From IMG/VR virus record IMGVR_UViG_3300045747_000505: 64,000 nucleotides of DNA; one strand, written 5' to 3'. The notes under the pieces were generated by a model. The model saw only the letters and a list, made by a program, of their open reading frames with translations. It searched no databases and had not been told where the DNA came from. Numbering within the stretch: position 1 is the stretch's first letter; every line of letters begins with the position of its first letter. This DNA comes from a virus. Its lineage: Duplodnaviria; Caudoviricetes. The position numbers and the translations under genes are program-made. Positions 34,876 to 39,076 of the stretch are shown here, piece by piece.

Positions 34876-34965
34876 GGGTCTGTAGCTCAGCTGGCAGAGC
34901 AGTTGGCTAGGCGCGTAAGCGCTGAAACCGACGAGTCGGATGTTCGAATCATCCCAGACCCACCA
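34876..34965 (+). tRNA. tRNA-like gene with a 14-nt insertion in the anticodon loop (Phe-like)
   Basis: Acceptor, D and T arms and CCA intact; loop is CTAGGCGCGTAAGCGCTGAAA (21 nt). Confidence 0.7.
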
Positions 34966-34967
34966 AT

Positions 34968-35100
34968 GTGGAAGTAGCTCAGTTGGTAGAGCGGCCGCCT
35001 CGTCGAAAAACACCCGTGAACGCCCCTTGTTGCGTAAGCAACCGATTGTGAATGGTTATCCAAGCAGCTCGTCGTTGGTTCGAATCCAGCCTTCCACCCC
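34968..35100 (+). tRNA. tRNA-like gene with a 58-nt insertion in the anticodon loop (His-like acceptor)
   Basis: GTGGAAG/CTTCCAC-C73, canonical D and T arms, 65-nt loop; ends CCG instead of CCA. Confidence 0.65.
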
Positions 35101-35145
35101 GCCTTTTTTACCGATAAATAGAAGTGATTCAACAGGAGCACTTCT

Positions 35146-35796
35146 ATGGTTCAAGCAAGCAGACGCAAGCACCACTACATTTACAAAATTACGCAGGTTG
35201 ATACCGGCAGATTCTACATTGGGATGCACTCAACAGATAATCTCAACGACGAGTATTTCGGTTCTGGGAAAATCATAACCGCTTCGATTAAGAAGCACGG
35301 CAAAGATAAGTTCATCAAAGAAATTCTTGAGCACCTACCATCCCGCGAAGCACTGAAACTTCGAGAGGAGACTATTGTGAATGCCGAGTTAATCAATGAT
35401 GCCCTTTGTATGAATCTTCAGATCGGAGGTGGCGGCGGTTTTAGTAATGACGCGCACCAACGTCGATGCTCAGAAGTTGGTAAGGCACGCTTCCTTGAAA
35501 AGCTAAAGGACCCAGAGTTTGCTGCAACCTATGCAAAGACCCATAAAATTTCTACACGAAAACGTATTGACGAGGCGTGTGAAGAGTTTGGTTTTTGGCA
35601 CAACGGCTTCGTAGGCAAAAGACATAGCGCCGAATCAAAAGCCAAAATAGGCAAAGGCAATTCATTAGCACAACTTGGTGAGAGAAACTCCCAATTTGGA
35701 ACGAAATGGATGCATTTCGATAAACAAAATGTAAAAGTTAAACCGCACGAAGTGAATGATTTCCTTCAGCGTGGTTTCAACTTTGGACGAACATAG
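35146..35796 (+). mobile_element. GIY-YIG (Seg-like) homing endonuclease
   Basis: HYIYKITQVDTGRFYIGMHSTDNLNDEYFGSG. Confidence 0.88.
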
Positions 35797-36119
35797 AGCA
35801 TCGGCGGAAGCACGATGCGGGAATTTAGTTTCGCACTGTTCCCACCCAGTTTCCTCGTGCAGCCGATAGCTGTGTTTTTCGAGTGGTTTTTCCTAAAAAC
35901 CACCCCGCGGCTCGTGGTGAAGAGTGGGAACTTCAGTTGATTCCCGGGTTGGCCTGTCAGCCAACAGATACGAATACTCTTACTGACGTGGCGATAGATG
36001 TGTAACCCCATCAAGTCGCTTGAGTTGCTGATTGATGAACGCGAGAAGTAATCAGCTAGTCGACGAGTAGAAACTCGTAAGTCGTTGAGTGCCGGAATCA
36101 CTTGGCGCAGTAATTCAAT

Positions 36120-36205
36120 GCGGGTGTGCTGTAATTGGTAGCCAGCGTACGTTCAGACCGTACGGTCCTTAGGACATGCAGGTTCGATGCCTGTCACCCG
36201 CACCA
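36120..36205 (+). tRNA. tRNA-Leu(CAG)
   Basis: GTACG-TTCAGAC-CGTAC, long variable arm, CCA. Confidence 0.88.
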
Positions 36206-36213
36206 AACAAAAT

Positions 36214-36299
36214 GCGTCTGTGCTGCAATTGGTAGACAGCGTCGGTTGAGAACCGGCGGTCCCTAGGACATGTGGGTTCGATGCCCATCAGACGCACCA
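36214..36299 (+). tRNA. tRNA-Leu(GAG), second copy
   Basis: GTCGG-TTGAGAA-CCGGC, long variable arm, CCA. Confidence 0.88.
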
Positions 36300-36331
36300 C
36301 ATAAATACTCCTGCCTTAGTAGGAGCTTGGA

Positions 36332-37015
36332 ATGATTCTTGCGGACTTGAAGCCATCGACATCTCGCACGACGTTTATTGAAACGTGGCTTTGTGAAATG
36401 CCAAGTGGTCTTGGCACATTCGAAACTTTCGAGACGCTGGAGTATTCAATCAAGGACTTTCTGAAGTACGGCATCAAGGTTGTCAACGTCAATGGCGTCA
36501 ACAAGATTGATGCTGGCGACAAGGTCTTCTACTGGTTCGAAGCCAACGGGAGCATTCAGCTCGCAACGGAGCTTCATAAAAAATCAGAAGGGCTGGTCGT
36601 CAGTCTTACTGGTAAGAATCCAAAGCTTCGAGGAAGAGCACCATACGCAAGCGAGCTGTACTCTGTCGTGCTAAAGGACTCTGGTAAAAACATTCGACTG
36701 ATGTCTGACACGCAGCTAAGCGACGAAGGTCTTGCTCTTTGGAAGAAGCTCGTTAAGCAGGGCCATAAGGTTTCTGTTTATGACGCAGCCAATCCAGGCA
36801 AATCATTCAAGTCATTTGAGACGCCAGCCGAGCTTGATGCGTTCTTCAAAGATGGCGATACGAATTTCAAGCGTTTTCAATATGTTCTCTCAGAAGAGCT
36901 GCTGAGCTACTGCTCGATGCGAGCAAGCTTTAGACTTCGTTTGCTGAGAGAAACGGTTGGTCATGATTTGACTGACGCACCAAATCCCGTAAGGGTGCCG
37001 TCGAGCTTGGCTTGA
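36332..37015 (+). CDS. GNAT-like phage protein (paralogue 2)
   Basis: SELY...LMSDTQLSDEGLALW; ATAAATA at 36301. Confidence 0.5.
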   Translation: MILADLKPSTSRTTFIETWLCEMPSGLGTFETFETLEYSIKDFLKYGIKVVNVNGVNKIDAGDKVFYWFEANGSIQLATELHKKSEGLVVSLTGKNPKLRGRAPYASELYSVVLKDSGKNIRLMSDTQLSDEGLALWKKLVKQGHKVSVYDAANPGKSFKSFETPAELDAFFKDGDTNFKRFQYVLSEELLSYCSMRASFRLRLLRETVGHDLTDAPNPVRVPSSLA

Positions 37016-37331
37016 CGTCTAGCTAAACTGAGAAGCGACAAGAAGCTCATGCGCAGGCCGGCTGTGAGTGAAAGCCTTAGGGAAGGGGCTAGCGAGAAGG
37101 GTCAAAGCCCTTCAACACCCATTTGGTAAGAGTATGATGTGCTCTTACCAAATGGTCAAGATGGCTTAGCGGCTACACACGTGTCGCGACGGATGGCTCT
37201 GTCGGTCGTGGCTTTGCGAAGACAATGTGAAGCTCCCAAGAGTAAGATGAGCATGAGGGAGCACTTGACCATTCATAATTTGCCACCCTACCCAAGGGGT
37301 CCGAGAGAGTGGTTGGAAGCATCTCGGCGAG

Positions 37332-37406
37332 TATTTCACGTAGCTCAATAGGCAGCAGCACCGCTTAGTATGGCGGGGATGCGGGTTCGAGCCCCGTCGT
37401 GTAATC
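37332..37406 (+). pseudogene. Degenerate tRNA (no CCA, distorted anticodon loop)
   Basis: TAGCTCAATAGGCAGCAGC D-arm remnant and GCGGG-TTCGAGC-CCCGT T-arm. Confidence 0.5.
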
Positions 37407-37423
37407 GTGGCATTCAATTCCAT

Positions 37424-37501
37424 CTGGGCGTAGTGTAGTCTGGCCAACATCCTCGGTCCGGAACCGATAGATCGCAGGTTCGAATCCTGCCGCCCAGACC
37501 A
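37424..37501 (+). tRNA. tRNA-Pro(CGG)
   Basis: Near-copy of the 33238 tRNA with loop TC-CGG-AA; CCA. Confidence 0.9.
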
Positions 37502-37722
37502 ATTCAAGAAAACGGGACCAAGGCTGCGAGGTAAGCTCTTGCTGCCAAGGTCCCGGGTTGTAAATATCCTGAGACGTGCCGATACACCATCGTAGGCCGT
37601 CCCAACGTACACGATTGCTCTATGGTCGCCGCAAGCGTCACGTGAGCGATAGGACAGGAAGGTGCAACCATCTATTCAATTGCAACTTGAACATTCAATT
37701 GCAACTTCAACTGGAGGACAAC

Positions 37723-38391
37723 ATGAAGTGTATACTTGAAGTGCGCGCCGCGGAAGGCGGCGATGATGCGAAGCTCTTCGCAAAGGATCTTGCTGCGGCC
37801 TACGGTCGCATGTTCAGCCGCTTCGGCTGAAAGCATCGCCTGCTAGATTCTCGTCAAGGCGAGATCTCGTTAGAGGTCAGCGGCGAGGATTTGACAGGCT
37901 TGCGACAAGAGGCTGGTGGTCATCGCATCATGCGGGTTCCACCAACCGAGCGTAAGGGTCGCGTTCACACTTCAACGGTGACGGTCGCCGTGCTCGACGA
38001 GGCGAAGGCCTCCAGCATCGAGTTCAACGACCGTGACTTTCGCGTCGAGTGGTACTCTGGCACCGGTGCTGGCGGACAACACCGCAACAAGCATCAGAAC
38101 TCGTGTCGCATCACGCATCGCTCAGGAGCGGTGGCTACGGCTCAGTGTCGTAGTCGCGAGAACTCTCTGGCCGAGGCGACGATTGCGATACTGGCACGGT
38201 TGAATGGAGCGGAGCAAGCGTCATCAGCGCTGGCACGGTCGCTCGACCGAAAACAACAAACTGGCAGTGGTGAGCGTGGTGATAAAATACGCACCTACCG
38301 CTTTCAAGACAACTCGGTCAAGGACCATCGCACCAACAACAGCGCGGCTCTCGACATTGTCCTCAACGGCAAGTTCGATCTGCTTTGGTAA
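37723..38391 (+). CDS. RF1-like class I peptide chain release factor lacking domain 1, with in-frame TGA at codon 36
   Basis: LEVRAAEGGDDAKLFA, RVPPTERKGRVHTS (PxT), GAGGQHRNK (GGQ), KIRTYRF...DHR. Both halves are in one frame across the TGA at 37828-37830. Confidence 0.88.
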
Positions 38392-38397
38392 ATAGCC

Positions 38398-38486
38398 GCG
38401 GGCTTGGCGAAATTGGTAGACGCAACGGGCTTAAACCCCGTGGCCTTTCACGAGGCGTGCGGGTTCGATGCCCGCAGTCCGCACCA
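38398..38486 (+). tRNA. tRNA-Leu(TAA)
   Basis: ACGGG-CTTAAAC-CCCGT, long variable arm, CCA. Confidence 0.9.
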
Positions 38487-38503
38487 ACATCTGGAGACAA
38501 CAA

Positions 38504-38703
38504 TGAACAAGATCATCGCAGCCATTCTGCTCGCGCTAGTAGCAATCATCATCGCCGGCCTCGTCTACGCGCCAAAGCGTCACACGCCGGTTGGCTCGCT
38601 TGAAGCCACCGTCGAATGCAAGGACGGCCACAAGTGGATTCGCAATCGCGACGGCAAGCTCATCGAGTGGATAACGGCCAACGGCACTAAGCCGCCGTGC
38701 TGA
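38504..38703 (+). CDS. Small membrane-anchored protein
   Basis: SD GGAG, hydrophobic N-terminus MNKIIAAILLALVAIII. Confidence 0.55.
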
Positions 38704-38708
38704 TATCT

Positions 38709-38783
38709 GGGCCGTTAGCTCACTGGGTAGAGCGTTCCCCTCATAAGGGACGGGGGAGGGTCCGATTCCCTCACGGCCTACCA
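38709..38783 (+). tRNA. tRNA-Met/Ile2(CAT)
   Basis: TTCCC-CTCATAA-GGGAC, CCA. Confidence 0.85.
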
Positions 38784-38836
38784 ACCTGCATAAAGACAGC
38801 ACCGGTTGATAAATAGATGATACAATGAAATTCAAT

Positions 38837-38916
38837 GTAGAGATGGCGGAGCATGGTCAAACGCAACGCGCTGCAAACGCGTACAATCCCGGGTTCGAAT
38901 CCCGGTCTCTACTCCA
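38837..38916 (+). tRNA. tRNA-Cys(GCA)
   Basis: ACGCG-CTGCAAA-CGCGT, U73, CCA. Confidence 0.88.
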
Positions 38917-38922
38917 AACAAT

Positions 38923-39076
38923 GCCCTTGTAGCTCAGTGGTAGAGCAATCGCCTTTTCAGGAGGGTTTATGACCCTCCTACCCTGCAGATCCTTCAAACG
39001 GTCTGCAGTCTAGGAGAGTTACATCTCTGAAGAGTAAGCGATAGGTCGACAGTTCAATTCTAGTCCTAGGGCACCA
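38923..39076 (+). tRNA. tRNA-like gene with a 78-nt structured insertion in the anticodon (Thr-like)
   Basis: GCCCTTG/CTAGGGC-ACCA, canonical D arm, anticodon stem ATCGC/GCGAT enclosing 85 nt. Confidence 0.7.

Follow-up and report, generated by a model that had tools for sequence, protein, structure and literature searches.

Y RNAs and the protein Ro60 form a conserved, poorly understood RNA-surveillance system. To our knowledge, the tRNA-like half of the bacterial Y RNA called YrlA has no known purpose. YrlA is a tRNA-mimicking Y RNA of bacteria and phages that carries the conserved 5′ motif GNCGAAN0-1G and a YUAY sequence opening its V loop (PMC4201824). The Yrl1 and Yrl2 RNAs of Thermus phage phiLo have a CGAA motif in a large internal bulge, are located upstream of the phage Ro60 gene and bind Ro60 (PMC12135203). 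Here we describe three interrupted tRNA genes, called genes 1, 2 and 3, in a 64,000-nucleotide (nt) stretch of phage DNA (IMG/VR record IMGVR_UViG_3300045747_000505; "the window"), which is part of a ~273-kb metagenomic phage contig. We hold with moderate confidence that these genes represent three separate phenomena within the tRNA array of a Ro60-encoding phage. Moreover, we conclude that gene 2 is a circularly permuted, tRNA-shaped Y-RNA-type RNA rather than an intron-bearing tRNA, because its insert is a conserved, covarying module that also occurs in free-standing form and tracks Ro60.

An earlier note, made from the letters of the window alone, had reported that these three genes carry 14, 58 and 78 extra nt in the anticodon loop, and both the positions (Table 1) and the lengths are borne out. 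The Rfam tRNA model (RF00005; gathering score 29 bits) matches gene 1 at 34876-34962 with 50.0 bits, gene 2 at 34968-35098 with 45.1 bits and gene 3 at 38923-39072 with 32 bits (43.1 bits in a short search). Its alignments skip 19 and ~63 nt of the anticodon loop in genes 1 and 2, respectively, and 81 nt in gene 3. The loops measure 21, 65 and 85 nt, which equals 7 plus the extra nucleotides, and none is a 7-nt loop that presents an anticodon; gene 3 alone has a definable ancestral anticodon (UGU), which its insert splits. As the note described, the arms, a 5-base-pair (bp) anticodon stem and loops of the form CU...AA (C32-U33 and A37-A38) can be read, but the helices of genes 2 and 3 have defects. 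The anticodon stem of gene 2 includes a C·A mismatch that is conserved among its homologs, and in gene 3 one nucleotide bulges from the T stem and the acceptor stem contains a U·U mismatch.

The amino acid identities assigned at that time are mostly lost. Phe and His are unsupported, and Thr is retained for gene 3, as Thr(UGU) and not Thr(AGU). The frame of gene 2 resembles tRNA-Gly(UCC) and that of gene 1 resembles tRNA-Lys(UUU) or tRNA-Arg(ACG). In its intron mode, ARAGORN reports two of the genes, as Ser(AGA) with 14 extra nt (gene 1) and Gly(CCC) with 58 (gene 2), but not gene 3; it also labels gene 1 Ala(GGC). The absence of normal Phe, His and Thr tRNAs from the window carries no weight because many other isotypes are likewise missing. 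A single small-intron class shared by all three genes is not supported, as they appear to be three different things. The suggestion of a tRNA-scaffolded RNA is upheld for gene 2, but not as one class for the whole set.

Table 1. Features of the window discussed in the text (positions count from the first nucleotide of the window)
Feature	Position	Strand	Basis
Gene 2, tRNA-shaped Y-RNA-like RNA, class A (proposed)	34968..35097	+	Acceptor, D arm, T arm and GCCGC/GCAGC helix around module; Rfam tRNA
Gene 2 Y-type module (proposed)	35015..35060	+	Motif search, helix covariation, circular permutation of stand-alone copies
Copy A, minimal stand-alone Y-type RNA (candidate)	33164..33221	+	Motif, fold
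Copy B, stand-alone Y-type RNA (candidate)	33329..33439	+	Motif; minimum free energy fold z = -2.9
Copy C, stand-alone Y-type RNA (candidate) with 19-bp P1, directly after gene 3	39088..39228	+	Motif; fold z = -5.2
GIY-YIG homing-endonuclease gene	35146..35796	+	Pfam SegE_GIY-YIG; inserted right after gene 2 acceptor stem
Gene 1, tRNA-like RNA, encoded CCA	34876..34965	+	Rfam tRNA, fold
14-nt GNRA-capped hairpin in gene 1	34910..34923	+	Read from sequence; present in minimum free energy fold
Gene 3, tRNA-Thr(UGU) frame split in anticodon, encoded CCA	38923..39076	+	Rfam tRNA, uninterrupted alleles of relatives
78-nt insert of gene 3, between U34 and G35	38956..39033	+	Both junctions fixed by alignment with insert-less alleles

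The insert of gene 2 can be divided into a series of short elements. Following the D arm are the strand P3′ (CGUGA, 35015-19), ACG, a pyrimidine bulge (CCCCUU) and the P1 hairpin GUUGC-GUAA-GCAAC (35029-42), whose loop is the GUAA tetraloop. These are followed by CG (35043-44), the spacer AUUGU, the strand P3 (GAAUG, 35050-54), G, and UUAUC (35056-60), after which the T arm and the acceptor strand complete the tRNA frame. A search of the window with the motif TTGT-N(1-8)-GTTATC yields four matches, all on the + strand, where 0.36 would be expected. One of these sites is within gene 2 (35046), and the other three (33172, 33338 and 39114) mark the intergenic RNAs that we call copies A, B and C, each of which starts a few bases 3′ of a tRNA gene. 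These copies follow a common order, in which P1, ending in AAC, leads via CG and a brief spacer to P3 and G-TTATC; beyond a variable region come P3′, three further bases, a pyrimidine-rich bulge (YYYTTT) and P1′, which begins with GTT. Gene 2 contains the same parts in permuted order. The base preceding P1′ is always U or C and therefore is able to pair with the invariant G that lies beyond the bulged C. In copy B, the stem encloses a T arm (AUGG-UUCGACU-CCAU), a 7-bp "acceptor" hairpin closed by UUCG, the dinucleotide UA and a D arm (GCUC...GAGC). The homolog of copy C in locus L097 has a covarying P1. Separately, a noncoding segment of the window (32786-32930), which none of the tools calls as a tRNA, holds two hairpins resembling T arms (AGGGUUCGAGUCCCU and CAGAGUUCGAGUCUCUG) and may contain more tRNA-like or Y-type RNAs.

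Relatives of gene 2 were sought in 160 huge-phage loci, mostly with tRNA arrays, taken from IMG/VR and from metagenome contigs searched with the RF1-like protein encoded in the window. Below, L-numbers (L001-L178) denote metagenome or IMG/VR loci, G-numbers denote other phage genomes that were compared, and X-numbers denote public metagenome runs (X1-X4, from wetland and pond samples in which this phage occurs). The close relatives L176, L177 and L178 were obtained via members of the cluster of a neighboring protein. A strict scan for RNAs with a perfect frame of acceptor, D arm and T arm and an over-long middle produced 13 members, here termed class A, in L014, L015, L022, L023, L025, L027 (two), L032 (two), L040, L097, L105 and L176. 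The long forms are not among the best 300 of 1065 matches to a tRNA covariance model.

The class-A RNAs reveal extensive covariation. Pairing in the five helices is preserved in 95.3% of cells, compared to 74% after column shuffles (0 of 500 shuffles reach the observed value), and a control in which partners were slid gives 39-54% paired. Changes on both sides are found at 19 of the 26 pairs, with three compensatory pairs each in P1 and P3, and the P3 pair 52:97 is G·U in 12 of the 13 RNAs. ACCG and TTATC are invariant in the alignment, just as AAC-C-G and UUAUC are constant in curated copies of the motif. The residues that build the tRNA elbow (U8, A14, G18-G19 and the GTTCRA T loop) are near-invariant. 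Complementarity of the P3 strands is specific to each copy: among 30 distinct module copies, the longest stem is at least 8 in 14, versus 6% of mismatched controls. The homolog in L176 (86% identity to gene 2) keeps all features; its acceptor stem shows two double compensatory changes, and GUAA is replaced by GAAA. Random decay among relatives, with no covariation in the inserts, is the pattern that the earlier note had set against its own proposal, and for gene 2 it is contradicted by these covarying helices.

The circular relationship between the two arrangements is seen in a pair of loci. A stand-alone RNA at L039:1297 is an exact circular permutation of the class-A gene at L025:13920, including the GCCGC...GCAGC helix with the C·A mismatch that gene 2 shares. 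Directly upstream of the latter gene, at L025:13788-13915, is a stand-alone Y-type stem that encloses a near-complete, unpermuted tRNA with the Phe anticodon loop CUGAAAA. Most class-A relatives have no anticodon stem flanking the module. In one class-A subfamily, CAU occupies the anticodon position in a hairpin loop that follows UUAUC, on a stem that is short or mismatched. This loop is CUCAUAA, as in the anticodon loop of tRNA-Met, at L015:4125-4251, L022:9086-9212, L023:4690-4817 and L105:3996-4134, and AUCAUCC at L097:646-772. Other class-A subfamilies have the loops CUGUUAA or CUGUCAA.

The frame of gene 2 appears to derive from a tRNA-Gly(UCC)-like gene. When IMG/VR was searched with the exact 5′ half of gene 2, the sole match was an unrelated tRNA-like gene without an anticodon arm. 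This gene (L001:7272-7355, - strand) shares the 5′ half GTGGAAGTAGCTCAGTTGGTAGAGC and proceeds from the D arm through a 9-nt linker to the T arm; it is located on a small viral contig with normal tRNAs around it. At the 3′ end of gene 2, the endonuclease gene region (35098-35797) represents a presence/absence polymorphism that is placed exactly at the end of the RNA. It is absent from the X3 allele (joint 35097>35798, with ACCAGAACATTT) and from L176, and in both the RNA ends in N-CCA.

Co-occurrence ties the motif to Ro60. A TROVE protein is encoded by all five motif-bearing records examined. Five complete genomes with TROVE (G001-G004 and G008) each hold 6-10 coding-strand matches to the motif, where controls give 0-1, whereas six complete genomes without TROVE (G006, G007, G009, G010, G012 and G017) hold 0-2, which is the background level. 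At nine of nine TROVE loci, a motif copy is located 0.4-0.9 kb upstream on the same strand; in G005 this copy is a GATTATC variant that is also found in L040. No TROVE homolog is encoded inside the 64-kb window. A word-match look-up with the Ro60 of a relative points to a TROVE-like stretch in the same genome, ~36 kb past the end of the window.

These observations on the sequences, on how they are conserved and covary, on Ro60 co-occurrence and on presence/absence polymorphisms are consistent with a model in which a Ro60-type binding module replaces the anticodon loop of a tRNA frame. The proposed module consists of a helix P1 ending in AAC/GUU, a bulged C, a G:Y pair and an asymmetric internal loop with a pyrimidine-rich strand, then a 5-bp helix P3 with the conserved G·U pair, followed by G-UUAUC. 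Stand-alone copies have the ends of the RNA in P1 and a tRNA-like part that is closed, the arrangement known from YrlA. Gene 2 instead has P1 capped by a GNRA loop, and its RNA ends at a genuine acceptor stem, which in relatives carries CCA. Such an RNA could be made and matured like a tRNA, with no splicing, while offering an arm for Ro60 binding. Its physiological role might be to link Ro60 to tRNA-handling enzymes or to their substrates.

Gene 3 is a different case. Its anticodon stem (AUCGC/GCGAU) and its variable loop (AGGUC) match the tRNA-Thr(UGU) of relatives, and L176 (86-92% identity), L177 (92-97%) and L178 all have an uninterrupted tRNA-Thr(UGU) with the loop CTTGTAA at the same site. 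The contig of run X3 (which is L178) skips 38944-39033 in alignment with the window. Because all three relatives are uninterrupted at that site, the insert is, as judged from these alleles, derived, recent and private to the strain of the window; the insert-bearing allele was found in two samples. The predicted fold of the insert has three hairpins (z = -4.5) and is closed by a helix, CUUUUC/GAAGAG, that includes loop residues 32-35 and leaves UAA bulged. No further copy of the insert was found in the window or in the loci compared, and it has no match in IMG/VR or Rfam. Acceptor pair 6:67 is A-U in L176, U-A in L177 and U·U in the window, which is weak evidence for relaxed constraint. On the closing helix, the two junctions are offset from each other by 2 bp and leave 3′ overhangs, which is the cut geometry of RNase III; this is an observation about position and not evidence for processing. 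The insert is compatible with a mobile or disruptive insertion and also with a young intron. We lean slightly toward an RNA that is unspliced, and so disabled or repurposed, with a young intron as the alternative.

Some other readings were set aside. For the gene 3 insert, a remnant of a group I intron was rejected on the basis of size and of the 3′-terminal A. For the internal loop of gene 1, a hammerhead (with CUGAAGA in gene 3), a k-turn and a sarcin-ricin motif were dismissed on reading the sequence, in which the partner motifs are absent. Within the gene 3 insert (38961-39016), AGGAGG precedes, at a distance of 5 nt, an ATG that opens a frame of 14 codons (MTLLPCRSFKRSAV). The Shine-Dalgarno-like bases are buried in the first hairpin of the insert, and this arrangement is probably due to chance.

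The loop of gene 1 (21 nt) reads CUA-(GGCGC GUAA GCGCU)-GAAA and has no usable anticodon. Deletions of 14 nt yield only UGA, AGA or AGG, none of which suits the body of the RNA, whose frame with a short variable arm is closest to the tRNA-Lys(UUU) of L040 and L027 or to tRNA-Arg(ACG). A variant that is ~90% identical (run X4) keeps the hairpin with a change at 34916 (T>A) that converts GUAA to GAAA and preserves the GNRA form. This variant also has a compensatory change in the T stem (A65-U77 to G-C) and a G-C to G·U change in the anticodon stem. A syntenic homolog of 89 nt (L025:6593-6681) lies directly after tRNA-Gly(UCC), as does gene 1 in the window, and its 21-nt loop contains GCC-UUCG-GGC followed by GAAA. 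An exact search of JGI metagenome contigs with the gene 1 hairpin gave no matches. Because no excision restores a sensible anticodon and yet the hairpin is conserved, gene 1 is probably a conserved, nondecoding tRNA mimic, which we consider more likely than an intron. A comparable arrangement occurs in two Ro60-positive phages (L015:12488-12590 and L023:5642-5743), where Arg(CCU)-type frames have an anticodon that pairs into a 28-29-nt hairpin (CU-CCUAA...UUAGG-AAAA) and so extends into a stem of 13 bp. The hairpin sequences differ between the two loci, neither of which has a normal tRNA-Arg(CCU). These hairpins are similar in idea to that of gene 1 and are not homologous to it.

Some findings weigh against the overall interpretation given above. 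The gene 2 of the window is slightly degraded relative to L176 and L025 and may be decaying: its P3 (CGUGA/GAAUG) has three of five positions paired, with tandem G·A/A·G, where L176 has UGUUU/GAAUA; the small GCC-GAAA-GGC hairpin has become weaker; and neither the discriminator nor CCA is encoded, both having been displaced by the endonuclease gene. Support for a Ro60 gene in the same genome comes from the word match, and Ro60 from the window's own 273,537-nt contig is not among the 120 protein-database matches listed. Our inference that gene 2 binds Ro60 comes from co-occurrence, position and resemblance. The Rfam YrlA model (RF02553; gathering score 69 bits) stays below threshold on every copy and has no match to the window copies at E ≤ 10. 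Class-A relatives with a CUCAUAA-type loop could conceivably have a decoding role. For gene 1, the homolog set comprises one short variant and one distant relative. Finally, the RNA ligases of relatives (see below) and the junction geometry of gene 3 leave room for splicing of genes 1 and 3.

Those ligases are central to the proposal that all three genes contain protein-dependent mini-introns of a new kind, where a phage or host endonuclease would cut at the base of the insert and a phage RNA ligase would reseal the loop. We view this explanation as unlikely. The earlier note had suggested looking elsewhere in the genome for RNA ligase or RtcB, and the five complete relatives all encode T4 Rnl1- and Rnl2-type ligases (one of them beside the tRNA array), while RtcB (PF01139) and EndA (PF01974) are absent from all five; the 64-kb window itself has no Rnl1 or Rnl2 homolog. 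The RNase III-like stagger in gene 3 is compatible with such processing, as is the hairpin in the sole Arg(CCU)-type gene of L015 and of L023, since its removal would restore CUCCUAA. However, the "intron" of gene 2 is the very part that covaries, stands free and tracks Ro60, and in most class-A relatives it has no anticodon stem around it. Gene 1 offers no body-matching anticodon on deletion of 14 nt, and the insert of gene 3, being private to one strain, does not require dedicated machinery. Archaeal and eukaryal tRNA introns are located at position 37/38 and have a bulge-helix-bulge that is cut by EndA/Sen. The inserts described here resemble them in residing in the anticodon loop, and the anticodons of L015 and L023 pair with the insert much as in an anticodon-intron helix; they differ in that the folds have no bulge-helix-bulge, the positions are not 37/38 and the five relatives have neither EndA nor RtcB. 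Group I introns also interrupt tRNA anticodon loops, for example that of tRNA-Leu(UAA) at U34/A35, and have a P3-P9 core of roughly at least 200 nt and a terminal G. The insert of gene 3 is reminiscent of these by its location at 34/35 within the anticodon and by its presence/absence polymorphism among close strains. However, all three inserts are far under the core size, as the earlier note correctly stated, that of gene 3 ends in A, and Rfam has no intron match at E ≤ 10. A narrower version of the mini-intron proposal, confined to the insert of gene 3, the hairpins of gene 1 and its L025 counterpart, and the Arg(CCU) hairpins of L015 and L023, has a slim chance of being correct. If it is, a nuclease of the RNase III type, specific for double strands, would cut the helix between insert and anticodon loop, Rnl1 or Rnl2 would reseal the ends, and host anticodon nucleases would have no access to the tRNA before synthesis of the phage enzymes.

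Alternatively, the three genes might be decaying pseudo-tRNAs that were hit by insertions and have lost selection. As an account of the whole set this is improbable, but for gene 3 alone it is plausible, at somewhat less than an even chance. The recent insert of gene 3 and its U·U acceptor pair, where relatives have A-U or U-A, would be expected from decay, as would the loss of the CCA and discriminator of gene 2 to a homing endonuclease and its weakened P3 and small hairpin. Furthermore, L097, a syntenic relative that is closer than L025, has neither gene 1 nor gene 3. These features contrast with the compensatory changes in every helix and the invariant motif residues of the gene 2 family, with the GNRA-to-GNRA and T-stem changes under which the X4 variant keeps the gene 1 hairpin, with the syntenic counterpart of gene 1 in L025, and with tRNA elbow residues that are all intact. 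A third possibility is that the RNAs serve as decoys or sponges that draw off host anticodon nucleases or other defenses directed at tRNA, presenting the tRNA body by which a nuclease recognizes its target without a cleavable anticodon loop. The tRNA-Lys(UUU) that the body of gene 1 resembles is the classical target of PrrC and PARIS, gene 1 lacks an anticodon, and the phage group has RNA-repair ligases and a CCA-adding enzyme. We nevertheless judge this very unlikely. The anticodon nucleases that are known to us recognize the anticodon loop itself, and that loop is absent here; the resemblance of the gene 1 body is weak (score 39 of 69), and gene 2 is better explained by its link to Ro60.

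With respect to the surroundings, the window contains a long tRNA array on the + strand and a tmRNA, and it also encodes the RF1-like protein, two homing-endonuclease-like genes, NAD-salvage genes (nicotinamide adenine dinucleotide) and a CCA-adding enzyme (59720-60838). Among cultured phages, no relative of the window was found beyond single tRNAs. At gathering thresholds, Rfam finds nothing in the whole window except tRNA and tmRNA. In E-value mode on 34600-39300, 32700-33500 and 38920-39240, no ribozyme, intron or full YrlA was matched. Specifically, small self-cleaving ribozymes (hammerhead, twister, pistol, hatchet and others) are lacking at E ≤ 1 in 34600-39300 and at E ≤ 10 in 38920-39240 and 32700-33500. 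The neighboring open reading frame at 36332-37015 has no IMG/VR match, and its homologs in ENA and Logan sit outside tRNA arrays.

Several other peculiarities were observed in these phages. The RF1-like gene (window 37723-38391; L176:2273-2941; PCRF and RF-1 domains) contains an in-frame TGA, and reading TGA as Trp gives an unbroken match of 222 amino acids that covers both domains; in L176 the gene is likewise called as two pieces. An amber-reading tRNA(CUA) is located within the window at 22817-22891. A tRNA with an 8-nt anticodon loop (UUAGUAUG) at 37334-37406 is nearly identical to one at L176:1882-1954, and ARAGORN assigns it the four-base anticodon "agta". Elsewhere, tRNA-Asp(GUC)-like genes have a conserved domain of ~41 nt (UAUAAAAGGUGA, a hairpin and UACGUNCAGCA) between the D arm and a seemingly normal anticodon arm (L034:6015-6128, L077:227-338, L156:4634-4745, L041:955-1076, L044:854-976 and L047:869-989). 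These five-armed tRNAs are of a different kind, and their genomes do not have the Y-type motif. Many class-I tRNAs of these phages (Gly, Asn, Lys, Cys and Thr) have an extra short hairpin in the variable region that is often capped by GAAA, as in L107:2503-2588, L173:4390-4475 and L027:3157-3247.

If our interpretation of gene 2 is correct, single genomes carry up to ten Y-type copies inside tRNA operons, some with a YrlA-like topology and others with that of a true tRNA, including a CCA end. This placement, together with the CCA end, suggests that the tRNA frame is put to real use, either in maturation by RNase P and CCA addition or in docking on tRNA-handling enzymes. The permuted variants would form a natural set for probing the role of the tRNA-like domain. 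In annotation, such genes are prone to be mis-called as intron-bearing tRNAs or as tRNAs with odd anticodons. The insert in tRNA-Thr and the anticodon-less tRNA are relevant to how the tRNA sets of phages change, and possibly to defense that targets tRNA.

Comparison with YrlA, made by the motifs given in the text of PMC4201824 and PMC12135203, reveals a shared overall plan. A Ro60-type stem is joined to a tRNA-like domain that is composed of a T arm, an acceptor-like stem and a D arm in copy B and L039:1297, and this domain is nested in the terminal stem in those two RNAs and in L025:7757 and L032:9099, with gene 2 as the permuted form. A local match of the YrlA model to L039:1330-1380 covers the core of T arm, closed acceptor stem and D arm (20.7 bits; E = 0.029 over 201 nt searched). 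UUAUC may correspond to the YUAY with which the V loop starts, and CCG(AA) to GNCGAAN0-1G, of which CGAA occurs in some copies only (PMC4201824, PMC12135203). A 5′ motif containing C-G beside a bulged helix may likewise be shared with YrlA, whose genes adjoin the Ro60 gene as motif copies do at the TROVE loci. The helix, bulged C and G:Y pair of the module also resemble the GGUCCGA Ro-binding site cited in PMC4201824.

Other features differ. Gene 2 and its class-A homologs are permuted and end at a genuine acceptor stem with CCA, and in this type a loop caps the Ro-type stem, which is positioned in or beside the anticodon arm. Each genome has 6-10 copies, dispersed across tRNA arrays, and some stems enclose a whole tRNA (L025:13788). 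The Yrl RNAs of phiLo are similar in that phage-encoded Y-like RNAs lie directly upstream of a phage Ro60 gene, but no tRNA frame is described for them (PMC12135203), and their CGAA motif is present in some of the copies described here, where only C-G is invariant.

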